Assembly (NCBI GenBank): GCA_001600695.1
Contig: BCKQ01000005.1
Location: 122,159 to 133,917, forward strand
Direction: 5' to 3'
Length of the DNA: 11,759 bases
Origin: Ascoidea asiatica JCM 7603
Lineage: Eukaryota; Fungi; Ascomycota
A program made the position numbers and the translations under genes. Positions within the stretch are counted from its first letter, which is position 1; each line of letters starts with the position of its first letter. The notes beneath the pieces were generated by a model, which ran no database searches, had not been told where the DNA came from, and was given only the letters and a program-made list of their open reading frames with translations. Below are positions 1 through 11,759 of this stretch, piece by piece.

Positions 1-109
1 TTTGAAGGGTAAAAAAGGGGTGGAGACATGTGATATAACCGAAGGCAGAAGTAAAGAAAAGGGTAATAAATAAAAGTGCCGGTCAAATTACTGTTTAAAC
101 ATTTTGGGA

Positions 110-354
110 TCATTTGTTTGAGGTGGGCCTCTTTTATTGTTTAAAGGCCCACAATTATTTATGCGAAAATGGATTTTGGAGAGGATATATTCCATGGTAC
201 GGATAAATAGCTAAATGTCAATATAATTTTGTTTTAAAAGTTGCTACGCCTTATATTTCCTAATAAAGTAAATACGCGCCGTTACGAGGCTGAAAATATT
301 TGCAAATAGAGATGTTGTGTCTTCAAAAAGAGATGATGTGACTTCACTTAGTAT
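110..354 (+). repeat. Left copy of a long inverted repeat, paired with 11515-11759. It may also include 1-109, whose partner would lie beyond the window end.
   Basis: Base-by-base comparison: 110-354 equals the reverse complement of 11515-11759 at 244/245 positions (single mismatch 341/11528). Identity stops abruptly at 355/11514. Confidence 0.97.
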
Positions 355-524
355 CACTCGACTTGTGATAAACCTAAACTGAGCTATTTTGAAACCATAA
401 TGTTACAGTCTTATAATTCATTTAGTACTAAATATTGCATATTTTCATTCAATTTATTTATTCATTTAAGACTAAGTAGAAAATTTTGATGATTACAAAA
501 GTTCATTTTCTCTTTATGTAAATT

Positions 525-1261
525 TTAAAACGACATTTCTTCATCTTCACTATTTGAATCGTAACTTTCTACTGACGACAAGTCATTATCCTTATTATTA
601 AGATCAACACATTCTATATGATTATTTCCACTATTATTTGAATTATCATTATTTTTCTCACTTTTATCGCTATCACTATCATTATTACTATTACTACTAC
701 TACTACTATTGAAAATATCATTCTCAGAAGCAAATTTTTCAACATATTCCTTAATTTTTTCATTATATAATTCTTTATTATTTAGATATAAATGGCTTGC
801 ATCACCATTCAATGGATCATCTGCATTCGGATATCTTAGTAACTGTGGTAAAAAAATTTCAAAAATATTAAACATATCAAACATTGGTGACCACTTCTGA
901 TTAATAACATCTAGACATACTGATCCACTTGTTTCATCAATATTTGGATGAAATATTATATTTGTAAATCCAATAGATGGCGATTTATAAGGATAATCAT
1001 CTGGTAATTCAACATGCACTTTCCAGATTCCATTTTCATATGATGTGCCTTTTGGTCCATAAAATTTCACAAAAAATTCTTGTAAATTATCATTTATTAA
1101 TTCGACTTCATAATCACTCATTATAAGATTACTAACGTCTGTTTGAATACGACGTTTTGAGGAGCTTATTATATAAAAACACTAATTTGTCAGTAAATAT
1201 TTCATTCATTTTAAAAGTAAATCCCCTATCAAAAGGATAAAAAAAAAGTAACATACCTCAT
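525..1261 (-). CDS. UBC8: E2 ubiquitin-conjugating enzyme Ubc8 (UBE2H family, GID complex E2). Two exons: 1261-1257 (ATGAG) and 1164-525; 214 aa with an acidic Ser/Asn-rich tail.
   Basis: UBC core with FHPNID...GSVCLDVIN active-site Cys and [10 protein letters not shown]. Splicing restores the conserved N-terminus [12 protein letters not shown] in frame with the 198-aa ORF. S. cerevisiae UBC8 also has an intron just after the start codon. Confidence 0.93.
1165..1256 (-). other. Spliceosomal intron of UBC8, 92 nt
   Basis: 5' splice site GTATGT at 1256-1251; branch-like TACTGAC at 1195-1189; 3' splice site AAG at 1167-1165. Removal gives ATG AG|C TCC TCA AAA CGT CGT. Confidence 0.88.
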
Positions 1262-2067
1262 TTTAATGAACAAAGATTAATTATTTGGCTGAAGTTATTA
1301 TTATTATTTTTATGTATAAGTAAAAACAAAAACAATAGCAGATAGGGAGAATAAAAGTAAAAGTTTGTATAAAAGTAGACGTTAAAGTAAAATGTAAAAA
1401 GAGAACTTTGAAAGTTGTATGAATTCATCAAACTTATCTATTCTTTTTAATATCATTATTACTATCATTTAATAACCATACAGTAATACAAACAAAAGCT
1501 ATCGTTTTGGAGCCGGGCCAATTTTGATTGCCACTTTCCAAATAAAGAAATAATGTATGAATTCCGACCTTTAAACTCTTCTTATGTATGAAGAACGAGT
1601 AATGTTATAAGAAATACGGACAAATTCCCAAAAGTTAATACTATTAGTCAGATGATATTCCCGGATTAGAGGAATCACTAAATATTGGGATCAAAAAATG
1701 TGGCCCTTCAATTATAGTTTGTTCTATCATGTGATATAGAATAATACCTTTTTTTTTCCCATTTTTAAATATATAAAAGACCTTTAAGAGTAGTTTTAAA
1801 TGTATTTTTGGTTTTATATTCCATTTTTAAAGATAACTTATACTTTGAAGGCGATATGATTTTAAAGCGCTAAATTTAACTTGACACTACTCTATGAAAT
1901 GTAAATTTAAAGAACTTTCCCTGAAATTTTCATTCAAAGTTTTGTGAATTTGAATTTAATGACTTCACCCAAATCATATCATAACAATTTCAAAACAATA
2001 GAATACCATGGTCTATTCAAATTTTTTTCATTCTTTTTTATATAATTTCTAAAGGTAAAAATTGAAG

Positions 2068-5000
2068 ATGTTTGTTACTTTTTTGAAAGGTAGTTCTTTT
2101 TTTGAGTTATCTCTGATTAAATCCTCAAAATGTCATCCAGCTTTTCCATTTACTTTATTTCGTTCTCAATCTATTAAAGTTCAAAATTCAAAAGATGAAG
2201 ATTTGAATCAAATAAATAATATACAAGACCTAATTCATAAATATTCTTCCACTTTACAACTCCCGAAAACATCGCTTTCAAATAGGTCTAATAAAGCTTT
2301 AATAAATAATCATATTATGCCCATTGTTACTGAAAGATTATATAATTGGCAACTCCAAAAATATTCTAATGATTCTCTTTTTATTCTACATGATGGACCT
2401 CCTTATGCAAATGGTAATTTGCACCTTGGACATTCAGTTAATAAAATTTTGAAAGACTTAGTCATTAGATATCAGTTACTTTTAAAGCATAAAGTTTATT
2501 ATAGGCCAGGTTGGGATTGTCATGGTTTACCAATTGAGTTAAAAGCCTTAGAAAAATTAACAAAGCAAAATAGGAAAAGAGATGTGAAAATAAAGTTAAC
2601 CCCAAGTAGAATCAGAAAAATTGCTGAAAATCATGCGATTGAACAAGTAGAAATTCAAAAGAAGCAATTTAAATCTTTTGCTATTTTAAGTGATTTTACA
2701 GATCCTTACTTAACTTTATCTAAAGAATTTCAATTAAATCAACTAAAAATTTTCAAAAAAATGTTTATGAAAGATTTAATTCAAAGAAAAAAGAAGCCTG
2801 TTTATTGGGGTTGTGAAACACAAACTGCATTAGCAGAAGGTGAATTAGAATATAATGAAAATCATAAATCTATTGCTGCCTACTTAAAATTTCCAGTCAT
2901 TAAATGTACCAAAGAATTTAAAGCATTTTTAAATAATCTAAATATACCTTTAAATAAAATATCTTGTTTAATATGGACTTCTACGCCATGGACTATAGCA
3001 AGTAATAGAGCAATTTGTGTTAATGAATCTTTTACCTACTCTTTACTACATTCTGAAAAAGAAGGTTATTTGATTGTTTTAGACTCTTTAGCAGATAAAA
3101 TAATATCCATTTCTTCCTTCGGTGAACAACTTTCTAAGGTTCCTAACGTTTTAATACCTGGTTCTTTATTAGTGAACAATTTTTACAAAAATCCGGTTAT
3201 TCATTCTCTTTCAAACAATAGTAATATTTTTAAAATTATTCACGGTGATCATGTTACTAATACTGCTGGAACTGGTTTAGTTCATACTGCACCAGGACAT
3301 GGAAATGACGATTATTTTGTTTGCTTGAAAAATGGAATTGATGATATTCTTTCTCCAGTTGATAATGAAGGCAAATATACCGCAGATGTTCCCAAAGGAT
3401 TTGATTCTTTGATCGGTGAGCATGTTTTGGGAAATGGATCGAAAAAGATGCTAATATTATTAGAAAAGAATAACATGATATTTAGTATCGATTCAAATTA
3501 TATACATTCTTATCCCTATGATTGGCGATCTAAAAAGCCTATTATCATTCGCTCCACCCCTCAATGGTTTGCTGACTTGTCACACATTAAAAATGATGCT
3601 ATGAATGCTATTTCTGAAGTTAGTTTTACTCCAAAGAGAGGTTATAATAGGCTATCAGCTTTTATAAAAACGAGAAATGAGTGGTGCATTTCTAGACAGA
3701 GATCATGGGGTGTGCCTATTCCTTGCTTCTATGATAAAACTTCAGGTGCAAGTTTAATGACTGAAGAGACTATTGACTATATAATTCAGATTTTAGAGAA
3801 AGAAAACTCTTTTGATTTATGGTTTCAAGAAGAAGAAGATATCTCTCATTGGCTACCTGAGAAACTCAAAAGTTTAGGTACATCACACGTAAAAGGCTTA
3901 GATACCATGGATGTTTGGTTTGATTCAGGTTCTAGCTGGGCAATTATCGAAAACTATCTAAATAAAGAAGGTCTTTTACACAAAAGAAATTATTTAGCCG
4001 ATGTATATGTGGAGGGGTCTGATCAACACAGAGGTTGGTTTCAATCTTCCTTATTAACAAAAGTTGCGGTTGGCTCTTTACTTCCAAGTGAGAGTGAATC
4101 TTACCAACATACAGCTCCATATAAAAATGTTATAACCCATGGTTTTACTTTAGATGAAAATGGATGTAAAATGTCAAAATCTATAGGAAATACAATCGAT
4201 CCTGATTCCATTATAACAGGCAAGAATGGCTTACCTGCCATTGGAACAGATGGACTTAGATTATGGGTAGCTCAATCAGATTTTACAAAAGATATAACAG
4301 CTGGTCCAACAGTTTTCAAGCATATCGCTGAAAATTTGAAAAAAATAAGATTTACTTTTAAATTTTTACTTGGTAATCTTAATGGCTACTCTGGTATTAA
4401 AGATCTGGTTCTGTATGAGAATTTAGAAGAAATCGATAAATATTGTCTAAGTAAGCTCATACGATTATATTACAGCTGTCACAATAGTTACTCGATTTTT
4501 AATTACAATAAAGTAGTTCAAGATATAAATAACAATATGAACAATATTTTGTCGAGTATGTATTTTGATATTGTTAAAGACAGACTATATGCCGATGATC
4601 CATTAAGTATCTCCAGAAAATCAGCACAGACAGTTCTATTTAACGTTCTTATGGTATATTTGAATTTACTCTCCCCAATTTTACCTATTATTACACAAGA
4701 AGTTTTTGAAAACATTCCGGAAATAGTGCTAAGTAAGAAGTCTGAGAGCATATTTTCACCTTTTCAGCTCAATTTTGAGAAATTTACCAAAAAAGAATTC
4801 ATCGATCAGGATATTGAAGAACGCTTTGATAAAAAAATTTGGCCTTTAAAAAACGAGATTCTATTACTATTGGAAAAGGCAAGAGCAGATAAGAAATTAA
4901 AAAATTCTCTTGAGGCCCAAGTACAGTTAAATAAAATCTCATCTGAGAGTGAAGAATCAAATTTTCTCGATAATTTAATGAAAAACCTCAATTTGGAGAA

Positions 5001-5232
5001 CATGAGTGATCTATTTTTGGTGTCTAATGTTTCAATAAATCCAAACGGAGCCAGTGATAAAAATATTGAAAACAATGATTATGAGTACAAGAAAGTTGTC
5101 AAAATTGAAGGGAGTTCGTTTGAAATTATTGTCACCGCTTCCAAACGTTCAAAATGCCCAAGATGTTGGAAATTTAATTCAAAATCATTAAGGGAACTTT
5201 GTGATAGATGTGTAAAAGTCATAAGAACTTAA
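2068..5232 (+). CDS. ISM1: Mitochondrial isoleucyl-tRNA synthetase (class I, bacterial-type IleRS1), 1054 aa from ATG 2068
   Basis: LHDGPPYANGNLHLGH (HIGH motif), PGWDCHGLPIE, WTSTPWT and GTGLVHTAPGHG (editing domain), EWCISRQRSWGVPIP, EGSDQHRGWF, KMSKS, and a C-terminal CPRC...CDRC Zn finger. The N-terminal extension resembles a mitochondrial presequence. The ORF track start at 2062 is TTG; the first ATG is at 2068. Confidence 0.95.
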   Translation: MFVTFLKGSSFFELSLIKSSKCHPAFPFTLFRSQSIKVQNSKDEDLNQINNIQDLIHKYSSTLQLPKTSLSNRSNKALINNHIMPIVTERLYNWQLQKYSNDSLFILHDGPPYANGNLHLGHSVNKILKDLVIRYQLLLKHKVYYRPGWDCHGLPIELKALEKLTKQNRKRDVKIKLTPSRIRKIAENHAIEQVEIQKKQFKSFAILSDFTDPYLTLSKEFQLNQLKIFKKMFMKDLIQRKKKPVYWGCETQTALAEGELEYNENHKSIAAYLKFPVIKCTKEFKAFLNNLNIPLNKISCLIWTSTPWTIASNRAICVNESFTYSLLHSEKEGYLIVLDSLADKIISISSFGEQLSKVPNVLIPGSLLVNNFYKNPVIHSLSNNSNIFKIIHGDHVTNTAGTGLVHTAPGHGNDDYFVCLKNGIDDILSPVDNEGKYTADVPKGFDSLIGEHVLGNGSKKMLILLEKNNMIFSIDSNYIHSYPYDWRSKKPIIIRSTPQWFADLSHIKNDAMNAISEVSFTPKRGYNRLSAFIKTRNEWCISRQRSWGVPIPCFYDKTSGASLMTEETIDYIIQILEKENSFDLWFQEEEDISHWLPEKLKSLGTSHVKGLDTMDVWFDSGSSWAIIENYLNKEGLLHKRNYLADVYVEGSDQHRGWFQSSLLTKVAVGSLLPSESESYQHTAPYKNVITHGFTLDENGCKMSKSIGNTIDPDSIITGKNGLPAIGTDGLRLWVAQSDFTKDITAGPTVFKHIAENLKKIRFTFKFLLGNLNGYSGIKDLVLYENLEEIDKYCLSKLIRLYYSCHNSYSIFNYNKVVQDINNNMNNILSSMYFDIVKDRLYADDPLSISRKSAQTVLFNVLMVYLNLLSPILPIITQEVFENIPEIVLSKKSESIFSPFQLNFEKFTKKEFIDQDIEERFDKKIWPLKNEILLLLEKARADKKLKNSLEAQVQLNKISSESEESNFLDNLMKNLNLENMSDLFLVSNVSINPNGASDKNIENNDYEYKKVVKIEGSSFEIIVTASKRSKCPRCWKFNSKSLRELCDRCVKVIRT

Positions 5233-5505
5233 TTTGTGAATATATAATATTCCATGTATATATTGTAAGTAGTGAAAATATTTTTTTTTGGGTAACTAAA
5301 ACGATTCATTTTTGTAAGCTATGGATATTACAATGAGGCCTACTTCAGTTTCAAAGCAAAACAAAAAGTATACTGGGAAAATTTCTCCTAATCTAACCAA
5401 GATAATGAAGACTGATTGATAGTTAACAGTTCAATAAAAAACAACCTCATCACTTAAAAAAATTAGTTTTGACCAATTGAATAGTAACAGGGTTAATATA
5501 TATTA

Positions 5506-6482
5506 TTAACACCTTACATCTACCCCCTTTCTTTTTTCATCTTCTCTTAATTCAAACATAATCTGAACGCCGACATATAAACAGAAAGTAGAAATAAGTG
5601 AAAATTTTATACCATCAGAGGAAGAAATCATATCATTTAATAACTTTTTAGTTCCTTCAGTCCCTAAGCAAAAACCCATTATATTTGCAATCATCATAAG
5701 CCAAATGTTAATAACAGCACCAATGCCACAAACATGTCTATAATACCATTTATTTATGATTAATGGCTTTAAATACATATTAGATAATATTTCTGGAATT
5801 AAAAACAAAACAATTAACCATCCCCACATTAATAGTTTCAATTGAATATCATGCCAAATAGCAACAAAAGAGAAAACTGCCAAAGAAGTTAAAATTCTGG
5901 AATTTGATCCACCTAACGGAATATATATATATTTAGTTACCCATTTATTATAAGAACGGTGCCATCCTCTCCAAAAGGCTAAAGCTGAATAATTATTACT
6001 TACGCATCGGATCATATTTTCAGGGGTATCAATTCCATCAAATAAAGCCCAGAGTCTAAAAAATCTCCAAGGTATCAATAACTTCAACCAAATTATTACT
6101 AGATTAAAAAAGCCAATCATTGAGATTTCAAAAGGAGTATCATTTGACCATGCTTTTCTTTTTGAAATTGCAACGACATAAATATAATGTAAAATAAATT
6201 CCATTGTTAAAAGACAGTATAAAAATCTTAAAAGGTATTTAATTAAAAAACTTAAATTTAGTGTTGGTAATCTATGATAAGATTGAAAAATGAAATCATT
6301 AAACGTTATAATTGGACCTGCAATAAATAAAGGAGTATAAAATACATAAGAAATATAATTAAATAAATTATAATCACTTAAATTTAACGGAGCATTCATT
6401 CTTAATTTATCATTAGTTAAAAGTTCTGGATTCTCTAAATCTATATTAGATTTACTTAACTTTCTTATTTTACTAGAACTAA

Positions 6483-6514
<32 letters not shown>

Positions 6515-7329
6515 GTTGTTGGCTCTAATTGAAGTTCATAATATCGGTTATAAAAATCTAAGTTAAAACTTAACATCCTTAGTAAAGTAAAGTTAAAGAA
6601 TACATCCCATCTTTCAATAATACCTTTGAAAGAATCTAAAAAACTTAAACTTGAAGATATTGAAGAAAATTTAATTAACCTATATTTATCATTAATAAAT
6701 AAAGTGGAAATTCCATACACCCAAATAGACAAAATTCCAATTTTTTTATAATTCAAATTTTTTAAATTTAAAAAGCTAGGTAAAGTTTTTTTGTTTTTAT
6801 TCAAATAAATAAAAAATCTTCCAATGAAGAAGTTAATAAATAAATGTAATAAAATTTTAATTGAATTGAATCCATGAGCAGAAAATAAGAAAAACAATCC
6901 AAAAAAAAAATCAAAATTATTCCTAACATTTGAAACTAATTTAGCAAAAACAATTCTTAAAGTCAAATGTAATAAGGATAATAAACTTAATAATAAAATA
7001 TTATCTCTAAAAAATCTATATTGAGAGTCAGAATTATCAAATTTTCTATCAAATAGCCAACCATCAGATAGTAAATTTTCATAATTTATATAATTTTCAT
7101 TATCGGAAGAAGATAGATTTATTGCAGTTTTATACATGTAAGGAACAGCTATAGAAAATACAATTATATAAAACCTAAATTCTAAAGTTGACCAATTTGA
7201 AACATTTGAATTTTTTATTATTCTATCTTTTTTTTGGGCAGAAATTGTTGAGGGAGATAGCCTTGAGTCTAAAACTGGTAAAGTAAAAAAATCCAGATAA
7301 TGTTTGATTATTTTAATCATGGGTTGCAT
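5506..7329 (-). CDS. GUP1: Membrane-bound O-acyltransferase Gup1 (GPI lipid remodelling; HHAT-like MBOAT), 607 aa
   Basis: DNSDSQYRFFRDN, RWDVFFNFTLLRMLSFNLD, GPIITFNDF, PENMIRC..NNYS..AFWRGWHRSYNKW, FVAIWHD (catalytic His), many hydrophobic segments, C-terminal GVDVRC. Confidence 0.94.
6484..6513. repeat. (ATT)10 microsatellite encoding Asn10 in a Gup1 loop
   Basis: Ten perfect ATT units; translates to TTNNNNNNNNNNV on the minus strand. Confidence 0.95.
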
Positions 7330-7474
7330 TGAATATTATTATAAATCTGTGGAATTAAATATCTGTTTGCATTTGGTCTAAATAGCTTCTCAGTTTTCTA
7401 TAAAAATTGAAATTGAATTTCTGATTTTTATTCAAGACAATTACATAAATGTAATAAATTGAAAGTACCACTCT

Positions 7475-7482
7475 CCGGGTAA
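7475..7482 (+). promoter_or_regulatory. Reb1-type binding site in the GUP1 upstream region
   Basis: Exact CCGGGTAA about 146 bp upstream of the GUP1 ATG, inside a GC-rich patch in otherwise AT-rich DNA. Motif match only. Confidence 0.5.
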
Positions 7483-7594
7483 TCTGGATAGCCACCTGAG
7501 GGCGGTGGTAATTTTTCAAATAATAATGCAAGTGAAAAATACCTTGAAATACTGTGCTTTCAACATTTGTTCGCAAATGTTCATCGGTCAGGAT

Positions 7595-7940
7595 TAGTGT
7601 TTAAAAGTTATGTTAGGTCCTAACCTAACTTTTAAAGTCTTGAAATACCTAACCTAACTACCTAACTTTTAAGTCACGTGATTATATAATAAATTGATTT
7701 TAAAGCTCAGTTTGAATGTTTTTTTATTTTTGGACTTTTCCTCAAGTATAGATAAGAGGCTACGTGATTTCTAAAAGAAAAATACACATGAAAATTCCCA
7801 TAAGTAAAATTTTTATTTTTAAAATTTATAAAATCACGTGACTACACGTGATATTTGTTTTTTAACTTTTCCTAACTTTTTAAAAATTGGGCTCTAAATC
7901 CTAACTTTTTCAGGTTAGGTTAGGAAAATTTAAAACACTA
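7595..7940. mobile_element. Non-autonomous hAT-superfamily DNA transposon (MITE), 346 bp
   Basis: Left end TAGTGTTTAAAAGTT vs reverse complement of right end TAGTGTTTTAAATTT (13/15). Directly flanked by an 8-bp near-direct repeat, GTCAGGAT (7587-7594) / CTCAGGAT (7941-7948). Clusters of CCTAAC/GTTAGG motifs near both ends; no ORF. Confidence 0.82.
7673..7850. promoter_or_regulatory. Cluster of CACGTG E-boxes (Cbf1/Tye7/Pho4-type) inside the MITE
   Basis: GTCACGTGAT at 7673-7682, its exact reverse complement ATCACGTGAC at 7833-7842, CACGTG at 7845-7850; near-matches TACGTG 7761-7766 and CACATG 7785-7790. Confidence 0.55.
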
Positions 7941-8346
7941 CTCAGGATTCCAGCCATAACCAGTAATGCCTAATAGTGGCTGATTCCAAATCCCTCCATG
8001 GGGTTTCAAAACCGAACAGTTCTTGGAACGGGATGAGAATTTTAGAAAACTATTTTATTTATACATCTAAATTCTTAGTACTCTAATAATTTGATAATAA
8101 AAAAGTTTTTATTTACTTTACAATATTCAAATGTTAAATAATGAATTTTTATATAGTAAAGAACGAAAAAACAAGTTATTTTTTCTTTTTTCAATTTTGT
8201 TTTATTGGAAATAATTTTCATCAACGAGAATAAATTTATAAAATTCATTGGAATTCATTTTTTAGTATGATAAAAATTTCAAAGTATATTATTAGCAGGC
8301 TTATTAAAGAGAAAAAATTAGAAAAGAAAAAAAATCACATAGGAAA

Positions 8347-10320
8347 TCAATCCATTTGATCATATAATTTTTGAAGATCATAATTCTCTCTCCAATACTT
8401 CCCTCTTTTTTTTAAAATTATCATTGGAATTGCACAAACGGTAACCAATCCTGCGACAATAGTATATAGCGGACCAGCTCCAATAGCTTTAATTAATGGT
8501 TCTGATATAAAAGACCCAATAGTAGCCATGCTTTGACGTAATAAATTGTTTAATGCAATTCCGGTAGCACCCCTTCCTGGAAGTGAATCCACAATATATG
8601 TAATCGTGAAAGAAACGGTAAGCATATTTGCAATTCCAAATAAAAACGTCCCCACAAGTGGAGCTACCCAAACTGTTTTTTTTTCAAAACACCAACCAGT
8701 AATCAAAAGTGCAACGGGATATAATATAACTGCAAGAAGTAAATTATATGACAACCTAGCTTCTGGGGCTAAAAAGCCATATTTCTTTTGATAATCTTTT
8801 AATAATTTATCAACCCATTTACCTCCAACATATGATGCAATTATATAACCGGCCGAATTTGGAATATACATCAAACCAACAATAATTGAAGAAAAAGAAT
8901 ATGGCTCTTTAGAGTAAATATTTGAAAGAGCCATATTATTTATATAAGTAGGTAAAAAAGAAAAAGAAGAATATAATATGGCTAAAAGTACCGGAGGATA
9001 TTTGAAAAATACAACTGCCTTTAATGGGGAATAAAAAAAGTATAAAGCTGAGTTAAATTTATTGATTTTATTATGTGATTTATTTTCAGAAACATGAGAC
9101 TCAACAATTGTTTTATATTTTCTTAAATCTGAATTTCTTATAGATATTTCACTATTGAAGTTGGAGGATGTTCTAGTTATTGCTTGACCTGCAAATAAAT
9201 CAATGGGAATATCATCTTCATCGTTGATATTTCTGCTAGTATGTGTCAAAACATTGGTTAAAACTCTTTCAATCTCTCTTGGGTTCAAATTTTGATCAAT
9301 ATCATTATCATGATCAATTTTATCACTAATACTATCATGACTAGTTGTACCAACACCAGTATCAATATTAGAAACTATATCAAAATCAGAATTCATAGTA
9401 TTAGTTCTATCGATATTGATGACGATGTTGTTGTTGTTGTTCTCAATAATATTATTAGCTGATTTTTTTGTCTTTTGAGCTTCTTCATCGAATGTTAAAT
9501 CTTTTTCAATATTAATTCTTCTAGATTTCAAAATTTCTGCAATTGCTGATTTACTTTCTTGTCTTCTAAGTGTTTCCGGTAAAAAAAAAATGATCATTAT
9601 ATTAATACAAAAAGCAAAAATAACCAAGAACCATTGAGTACCTCTGAATCCCCATCTTAAAGATATAGCCCCACCAATTATTGGAGATAAAAAGGGTGCA
9701 ACTAAAGTCCCAAGATAAAAAAAACCCATTGCAGTTCCTCTTTCGGTTGGAGCAAATAAATCTGCTATTGAACCAGCACCAACACTTTGAACAGAACTAG
9801 AAGAAGCTCCACATAAAATTCTGAATCCCATTAGCATACCTATTGAGGTTGAAAGTGCACAACCTATTGAAAAAAACATAAAAAGAGTAAAAGATATAAT
9901 ATATATTGATCTTCTACCGAATTTTTCACTAAAAGAAGACCACCAAAGAGGAAAGATTCCTAAGGACAAAAGGTAAATACCAACAGATATATTAACTAAA
10001 GAAGTCGAAGTATGAAGAGTTTTATCAATATTATCTATAGATGGTAATAAAATTGAAGTTCCCATTGGACCAATTATAGAAGCAGAAGCTACTATCGAAA
10101 GAATTAAATTTTTCATGCTTTTTGAATAATTTCTAGGATCTTTGTATTCTGGGACAAGTAATAAAGTTTTAGCGAAAAATCCCCTTCTATCTTTTCTTAA
10201 AATTATTGTATCATCAAAAGTATTAGTATTTTGAACATTCTTAGAAATTGGACTTGAAATTTTCTTATTATCAACAGGGGATATAGGGTTTGAATCGTTG
10301 TTAGTTGTATGAGTAGGCAT
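8347..10320 (-). CDS. QDR3: MFS drug:H+ antiporter, DHA1 family, Qdr3-like; 657 aa from ATG 10320
   Basis: GPMGTSI, VNISVGIYLLSLGIFPLWWSSFSEKFGRR, SVQSVGAGSIADLF..ERG, LPETLRRQ, PEARL; two TM bundles with a long central loop, matching Qdr3 as I recall it. The ORF track start at 10329 is TTG; the first ATG is at 10320. Confidence 0.88.
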   Translation of the reverse strand: MPTHTTNNDSNPISPVDNKKISSPISKNVQNTNTFDDTIILRKDRRGFFAKTLLLVPEYKDPRNYSKSMKNLILSIVASASIIGPMGTSILLPSIDNIDKTLHTSTSLVNISVGIYLLSLGIFPLWWSSFSEKFGRRSIYIISFTLFMFFSIGCALSTSIGMLMGFRILCGASSSSVQSVGAGSIADLFAPTERGTAMGFFYLGTLVAPFLSPIIGGAISLRWGFRGTQWFLVIFAFCINIMIIFFLPETLRRQESKSAIAEILKSRRINIEKDLTFDEEAQKTKKSANNIIENNNNNIVINIDRTNTMNSDFDIVSNIDTGVGTTSHDSISDKIDHDNDIDQNLNPREIERVLTNVLTHTSRNINDEDDIPIDLFAGQAITRTSSNFNSEISIRNSDLRKYKTIVESHVSENKSHNKINKFNSALYFFYSPLKAVVFFKYPPVLLAILYSSFSFLPTYINNMALSNIYSKEPYSFSSIIVGLMYIPNSAGYIIASYVGGKWVDKLLKDYQKKYGFLAPEARLSYNLLLAVILYPVALLITGWCFEKKTVWVAPLVGTFLFGIANMLTVSFTITYIVDSLPGRGATGIALNNLLRQSMATIGSFISEPLIKAIGAGPLYTIVAGLVTVCAIPMIILKKRGKYWRENYDLQKLYDQMD

Positions 10321-11261
10321 TAAATTCAAAGCAAAAATTAATTAACAATAACTTAATTTTAAAATTATTGGCAAATCCATTATATGAATTTAAATAAATT
10401 AATAAAAAAAAGAAGCAAGTTAACTCTTTATAAGGAAATTAATAAAATATTCAAGAAAGTAAATATGATAATTAATATTATTACATTTGCTAAATAATTT
10501 CACCTCAATCGAATTATTCCAGTATAGCCAATAGAAGCAAAAAAAAAAATTGAGATTTCAAACAGAAAAATAAAAGATTTAACTTAGATATTAGATTTGA
10601 TATTCAAATGACGATTTATGATAGTAAAATAAAAACAAATTGTTTTTGGAAGATAAATTTATTATTAAATTGAGAAACAAAACTTTACTTTTCATAAGAG
10701 TGACAAAATATTTCAAAAAAGAAAAAATCCGACAAAACCTCGGAATTTATTTCAAAATAGATGAAAAGAGAAAAAAAACGAATTTAAGAAACAAAACATG
10801 TGATAATTTTACAGCAAACAAACCAAGTATGGCTTTTCGGGTTAATAATCATGGACAAATCGAGGGTAAGTTGGTCGAGAAGCAGCAGAACTTTCAGAGT
10901 GAAGCTGAGTCAAAGACACCGCCGGGCGAACAGCTTTTCGTTAGGATTGGAATATTTATCAGAAAAGGCCTCACCGGAATTAGATAAAATATAATAGGAA
11001 ATTAGCGGCAACTCACCATTTTGGTAACTTAACCGATAATTCCCTTCTTTTTCCCAAAAAATTAACCGCCAGCTACTGGTAAATACCAATACACGATATA
11101 TTGAGTATTTTGAAAAACAAGGTTCTATGTTGATTATAAAAAACGTGATTTATTCTGACAGGTATAGGTTTTTAATCATTGGGAATATCTTTAAAATCCG
11201 AGAAAGATAGAAATTTTATTTTGTTGTTCCCAGAACAACTCAACTACAATGATTACCCTGA

Positions 11262-11290
11262 GACTTAGGACTCCTAAGTCACTTAGGAGT
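11262..11290. repeat. Overlapping double palindrome; candidate hAT excision footprint
   Basis: GACTTAGGA-C-TCCTAAGTC (11262-11280) overlaps ACTCCTAAGT-C-ACTTAGGAGT (11270-11290). ACTTAGGA is directly repeated at 11263 and 11281 with its reverse complement between. Confidence 0.7.
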
Positions 11291-11514
11291 AACGCAATTT
11301 AACCACTTGTTTTGACCCCAGTACTCATTCGATTTACTCATTTTTGCCCCTCAAAAAAACGAAATTCCAAACAAATTTTGTTAACAAAACATAGTCCTTT
11401 TCTAAAAAAAAAATTAACCTCCATACTATTTTAGTAGAAATGTGTTCATATTTACTTGAAAATATTCTAATTTAGGAACGTAAAATTACACTTTTACTCG
11501 CTTTTACCTGAGAA

Positions 11515-11759
11515 ATACTAAGTGAAGACACATCATCTCTTTTTGAAGACACAACATCTCTATTTGCAAATATTTTCAGCCTCGTAACGGCGCGTATTTA
11601 CTTTATTAGGAAATATAAGGCGTAGCAACTTTTAAAACAAAATTATATTGACATTTAGCTATTTATCCGTACCATGGAATATATCCTCTCCAAAATCCAT
11701 TTTCGCATAAATAATTGTGGGCCTTTAAACAATAAAAGAGGCCCACCTCAAACAAATGA
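11515..11759 (-). repeat. Right copy of the long inverted repeat, truncated by the window end
   Basis: Reverse complement of 110-354 with one mismatch; identity continues to the last base of the window. Confidence 0.97.

Follow-up and report, generated by a model that had tools for sequence, protein, structure and literature searches.

Inverted pair of probable transposon ends around four single-copy genes in an Ascoidea-type genome

The DNA analysed here is a single stretch of 11,759 nucleotides (the window), in which four genes are enclosed by near-identical inverted arms. These arms probably represent the gene-facing ends of two members of a repeat family with about eight copies in the genome, likely a young DNA transposon with terminal inverted repeats (TIRs) and possibly Mutator-like; the genes between them would be ordinary single-copy chromosome, inverting only by occasional accidental recombination. 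The feature is real but of an ordinary type, probably a pair of transposon ends, with the modest twist that the flanking copies are probably sisters and that two DNA transposon families probably share this short stretch.

Results

Near-identical, non-coding inverted arms had been described in the initial annotation, and the sequence comparison bears this out. Positions 110-354 match the reverse complement of 11515-11759 at 244/245 nucleotides (blastn E=2e-124), with the lone mismatch at 341/11528. The runner-up inverted pair in the window is only 34 nt long at 71%, which excludes a chance origin of the arms. No ATG-started ORF of at least 50 aa, no tRNA and no Rfam match was found in the arms, and the visible 359 bp of the left copy hold no ORF. 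Over the whole window, the tRNA search gave no hit and the Rfam search gave two weak matches (E 0.48 and 0.99), both of which lie outside the arms and were rejected.

Three public contig sets (X1, X2 and X3) were aligned to the window, with 95-97% of sampled words present; two further sets from other organisms (X4 and X5) had a share of 0.00 and contribute no evidence. X1 and X2 may be the window's own source and may come from one strain, and the three sets represent at most two samples. Compared with the extent first proposed for the repeat, the inner boundary is displaced inward by 5 bp and lies at 359/11510, not at 354/11515. Out to this boundary the arms are identical at 247/250 nucleotides according to a repeat finder, and contig break points and loose ends concur. 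Window positions 1-109 are also repeat, lying under the high-depth contig of the repeat interior. This contig (X2 record 8) reaches at least 259 bp to the left of position 1, which puts the length of the left copy at about 618 bp or more. Coordinates of all features are collected in Table 1. Two structural details were recorded near the arms. A small hairpin with a 6-bp stem and a 7-nt loop spans the junction between left terminus and flank (349-369), and at 11262-11290, 220 bp inward of the right arm, an 8-bp word is followed by its inverse and then by the word again, so as to form two palindromes that overlap; these resemble the footprint that hAT or MULE elements leave on hairpin-type excision.

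Table 1 Features of the window and their coordinates.
Feature	Position	Strand	Details
Left repeat copy	1..359, onward at least 259 bp past the window's left edge	.	Terminus at 359, reading GAGTGATACTAAGTG from outside inward
Two tandem 21-bp subterminal repeats, left copy	303..346	+	Period 21, 2.1 copies, 86%
UBC8, E2 enzyme	525..1261	-	Stop codon 165 bp from left terminus; best full-length match A. rubescens UBC8 (70%)
ISM1, mitochondrial isoleucyl-tRNA synthetase	2068..5232	+	60% to A. rubescens ISM1; next best 53%
GUP1, MBOAT O-acyltransferase	5506..7329	-	67% to A. rubescens; next best 56%
hAT-type miniature element, 346 bp	7595..7940	.	8-bp perfect TIRs TAGTGTTT; 8-bp flanking duplication 7/8
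MFS drug-efflux-type transporter (QDR3 label unconfirmed)	8347..10320	-	Start codon 1189 bp from right terminus
Right repeat copy, inverted	11510..11759, cut by window edge	.	Terminus at 11510, GAGAAATACTAAGTG
Same two 21-bp subterminal repeats, right copy	11523..11566	-	Period 21, 2.1 copies, 91%

Sequencing depth distinguishes a repeat confined to two arms from a dispersed one, and a comparison of repeat and gene depth had been proposed with the initial annotation. Contig depth does not strictly equal copy number; with the mean of five single-copy contigs per run as the reference, the repeat-interior contig over 1-221 in X1 has a depth of 391.1 (7.8x single-copy) and that over 1-160 in X2 a depth of 321.5 (7.2x), while unique parts of the window have depths of 44.8-51.1 (X1) and 44.2-46 (X2), like contigs of other loci (54 and 50.7 in X1). 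The enclosed genes are thus single-copy and the repeat is dispersed. By this measure it occurs at about eight places in the genome, and a two-copy repeat cannot give such depths. Among the contigs listed, the repeat splits into several paths between 222 and 300. Variant B has a depth of 4.0/5.0/5.3x, and variant D, in which 69 bases are skipped (223-293), one of 2.4/1.6x. Variants C1 and C2, seen in X2 and X3 over window positions 196-305, reach about 0.5-0.8x each, and this half depth suggests two alleles of one heterozygous locus in a diploid strain. A step in summed depth near 304 (9-12x) was not read as copy number, since contigs that overlap enter such a sum twice. A 28-base pattern from the repeat gave no match in JGI metagenomes. 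With the 7-8x depth, the diverged variants and a terminus common to other loci, the second of the two options originally offered, namely two copies of a young dispersed element, is supported.

A sharp terminus shared by dispersed copies is a mark of TIR DNA transposons, and such a terminus was found. This terminus is GAG, lies at 359/11510 and points toward the genes. In all three runs the unique left contig begins at 330; contigs overlap by 30 bases (X3 records 15/16), so another locus shares the sequence through 359. The unique right contig ends at 11558, again in 3/3 runs, and at least two X3 contigs align from 11510 and then depart with other flanks, leaving loose ends before 11510. One contig in each run departs from the window's repeat inward of 295 (mirror position 11574) and continues into another interior, with the same 27 letters in 3/3 runs; a second element end or a subfamily would look like this. 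A boundary with a TA duplication at 351-352, as in a Tc1/mariner reading, was also considered and is disfavoured, since the sequence through 359 is shared with another locus.

In the visible part, with one flank per copy, neither a transposase nor an outer end nor a target-site duplication (8-11 bp in MULEs) appears. Judged from its terminus, the repeat is most likely a class II element. Its GAG start is what we take, from maize MuDR, to be a hallmark of Mutator-like elements, and that superfamily is possibly the correct one, as a lead rather than as a filed assignment. The 21-bp tandem repeats sit 13 bp from the GAG inner end of the arms and are putative transposase-binding sites. The ends of Muta1 of Aedes, as described in PMC5499845, are built and bound in this manner, with a terminal motif followed by subterminal tandem repeats; they resemble the present arms in the G-starting terminus, the subterminal repeats behind it and the long non-coding end, and differ in carrying nine 12-bp repeats where two 21-bp repeats are found here. 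MULEs typically have very long TIRs according to PMC6446971. The TIRs of Mutyl, the Mutator-like element of Yarrowia, are given as 22 bp in PMC5014426. If the long TIRs are symmetric, two elements in direct orientation would give the same picture as an inverted pair.

The multicopy, non-coding nature of the repeat would also suit two inverted copies of a dispersed repeat of another class (a retrotransposon LTR, or a Helitron-like or SINE-like element); long LTRs can attain its minimum length of about 618 bp, and LTR elements are reported in PMC13148404 to be young and common in the sister genus Saccharomycopsis. We nevertheless consider such an origin unlikely. LTRs have the termini TG...CA, whereas the shared terminus here is GAG/CTC. 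In addition, the repeat has no poly(A) tail, and the subterminal tandem repeats, together with a variant that has only the terminal part in common, fit TIR elements better.

Cut-and-paste transposition has taken place in this genome, as is shown by a second TIR element with a target duplication in the same 11.8 kb. The TIRs of this miniature element (Table 1) are perfect over 8 bp, within the 5-27 bp known for hAT MITEs, and agree at 11 of the first 12 bases. It is flanked by a duplication of the 8-bp length characteristic of hAT elements; 34 of 11359 window positions equal its 7/8 agreement at this spacing. CCTAAC/GTTAGG hexamers, many of them subterminal, occur 10 times in the element versus 4 times in the other 11,413 bases, and the predicted fold has a z of -4.3 against 100 shuffles. 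Contig loose ends fall exactly at 7595 (at least two contigs, X3) and at 7940 (at least three contigs in each of three runs), and pieces homologous to the element were found inside 9.8-kb and 12.9-kb single-copy contigs. It is therefore a dispersed MITE: non-coding, shorter than 600 bp and with at least three related loci. The element lies 265 bp upstream of the GUP1 start. A cluster of CACGTG sites at 7675-7845 was examined as a CDEI-like centromere signal and rejected, all three sites being inside the miniature element. On either side of it (7480-7600 and 7941-8040) the non-coding DNA is GC-richer and may represent an older element into which the miniature element inserted.

For the repeat of the arms, the two flanking copies appear to be more closely related to each other than to the remainder of the family. 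The window's private repeat haplotype near 11625 has a depth of only 2.0x and 2.1x, so the flanking copies appear to be sisters. A transposase from an unseen full-length copy would have inserted both, and the likeness of the two would stem either from a local hop or from exchange over the intervening 11 kb, through gene conversion or a crossover. The enclosed block would be inverted if the two copies recombined with each other. It is conceivable, though quite improbable, that a homogenised sister pair recombines often enough for a single clone to contain both orientations of the 11-kb block. The window would in that case contain a transposon-born invertible segment at the stage that gives rise to yeast flip/flop switches, in a genus where A. 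rubescens evolved one.

The initial annotation had also offered, as its first option, a non-MAT invertible cassette. A dedicated flip/flop cassette of this sort, perhaps with domesticated transposon ends, that reversibly changes the DNA upstream of the transporter is in our view very unlikely. The near-identical, inverted arms agree with it, and so does the private haplotype (2.0-2.1x), which is apparently confined to these two copies, as a homogenised dedicated pair would be. As described in PMC6692504, the related A. rubescens has an FF1 switch with 2-kb inverted repeats, and short-read assemblies may contain FF1 contigs whose ends are short inverted repeats. The present structure is indeed like the FF1 switches of Ogataea polymorpha and A. 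rubescens in having an inverted repeat around a gene block, and it comes from the same genus as the latter. However, a dedicated two-copy cassette fails the copy-number test, the repeat family being present at 7.8x and 7.2x with many variants rather than confined to two arms. The arms hold neither MAT genes nor truncated gene ends, MAT genes are absent from the structure as a whole, the transporter starts 1189 bp from the arm with all four promoters apparently inside the block, and no sign of a centromere, a telomere or an adjoining silencing element was identified in the window, unlike in the FF1 switches as that source describes them. None of the three contig sets links one arm to the other, although contigs would not reveal such a link.

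The absence of MAT genes noted in the initial annotation holds for the enclosed block, where the four long ORFs carry only E2, IleRS, MBOAT and MFS domains. Named matches from A. rubescens bear out three of the proposed designations: UBC8, ISM1 and GUP1. The fourth, QDR3, has no named match, and the gene is better described as an MFS transporter of the drug-efflux type. For UBC8, A. rubescens ranks third by E-value, behind two plant-labelled matches that cover only 65-75% of the query, and provides the best full-length match at 70%; for GUP1 and ISM1 it ranks first. These matches identify the host as an Ascoidea-type yeast distinct from A. rubescens. UBC8 opens with a 5-nt exon, and the intron predicted behind it (1256-1165, - strand) has the donor GTATGT and the branch site TACTGAC, where TACTAAC is usual. 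The four frames contain only 4 CTG codons, so that the choice of genetic code hardly matters. None of the four window proteins has an exact match in the protein collection searched (0/4).

UBC8 and ISM1 are neighbours in A. rubescens too, with consecutive accessions (ODV63886/ODV63887), and GUP1 is on a different scaffold from ISM1 in that species. Pachysolen, C. arabinofermentans, W. mucosus and B. naardenensis each have ISM1 and GUP1, convergent neighbours here (5232-5506), on separate contigs; in S. crataegensis the two genes are 56 accessions apart, with a contig of equal length for both. Judged from these gene orders, the block is partly an old arrangement with at least one internal synteny break (ISM1/GUP1) and is no conserved unit. 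A search of metagenomes for ISM1-related loci confirmed 0 of 37 pattern matches and found no empty site. The promoters of all four genes appear to be inside the block, so an inversion would not swap promoters and would be expected to have little effect on expression.

These observations also bear on whether the gene block is the cargo of one giant element, or forms a circle together with one element, which we consider extremely unlikely. The arms are mutually closest (2x haplotype), as the TIRs of a single element would be, but their termini point toward the genes and not away from them. The inner flanks at the 359/11510 boundary show no direct repeat at any length from 2 to 11, in X1 the block is as deeply covered as contigs that belong to other loci, and UBC8 and ISM1 are consecutive in A. 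rubescens. A composite transposon carrying the genes, as had been suggested for the pair, is not supported either, because the termini in view point toward the genes, which are present as single copies.

That one arm is an assembly artefact is scarcely credible and has largely been refuted already. An assembler has inflated inverted repeats in other yeasts (PMC6692504), and the window ends inside the repeat; in 3/3 runs, however, contigs assembled separately run across both repeat-to-unique junctions (from 330 on, and up to 11558) with 0 differences, and the right junction carries private bases, so that an artefact in either arm is most improbable. The end of the right arm coincides exactly with the place at which the left copy departs from the high-depth contig, at an inserted base behind 109, as truncation by the assembler predicts. 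On this evidence the window is probably an entire contig, which the assembler carried on into the repeat for as long as it could separate the copies. The caution voiced earlier, that a contig with the same repeat at both ends favours two dispersed copies, fits this picture.

Discussion

The preferred reading, two transposon copies facing each other across ordinary host genes, has close counterparts among yeast DNA transposons. In Lachancea mirantina, recombination between the Rover2 copies LAMI0F15368t and LAMI0F15632t inverted the region between them and swapped their target duplications, as described in PMC4316626. Like that pair, the copies described here are DNA transposon copies of opposite direction around host genes. 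Unlike the present element, whose superfamily is putative and which is known from sequence alone, Rover is a hAT element with 18-20-bp TIRs and a known transposase, and its inversion is documented. For Dici1 of Diutina catenulata, PMC13469147 describes a recent burst of near-identical copies, an inversion between inverted copies and derived MITEs. The likeness lies in near-identical DNA transposon copies forming an inverted pair in a budding yeast; Dici, however, is an ITm element with CAGTCGGT ends, a TA duplication and up to 96 copies, whereas GAG ends and about 8 copies were found here. The miniature element upstream of GUP1 resembles the mRover1 MITE of Lachancea waltii as described in PMC4316626, with a length of about 350 bp, short TIRs, an 8-bp duplication, many subterminal hexamers and few copies, although the TIR and hexamer sequences differ.

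We found no description of either element in the literature on Ascoidea transposons, inverted repeats and mating-type switching, in which few subscription papers were covered and where Supplementary Data 8 of the Dici study could list one; the one supplementary file of PMC5751038 contains neither 'Ascoidea' nor 'Saccharomycopsis'. As a substrate for rearrangement, the inverted pair belongs to a type already on record. Budding yeasts have few DNA transposons according to PMC4316626, and two apparently recent families within 11.8 kb of an Ascoidea-type genome extend the short list of lineages that carry them. If frequent flipping of the block were true, the origin of flip/flop repeats from transposons would become directly testable.
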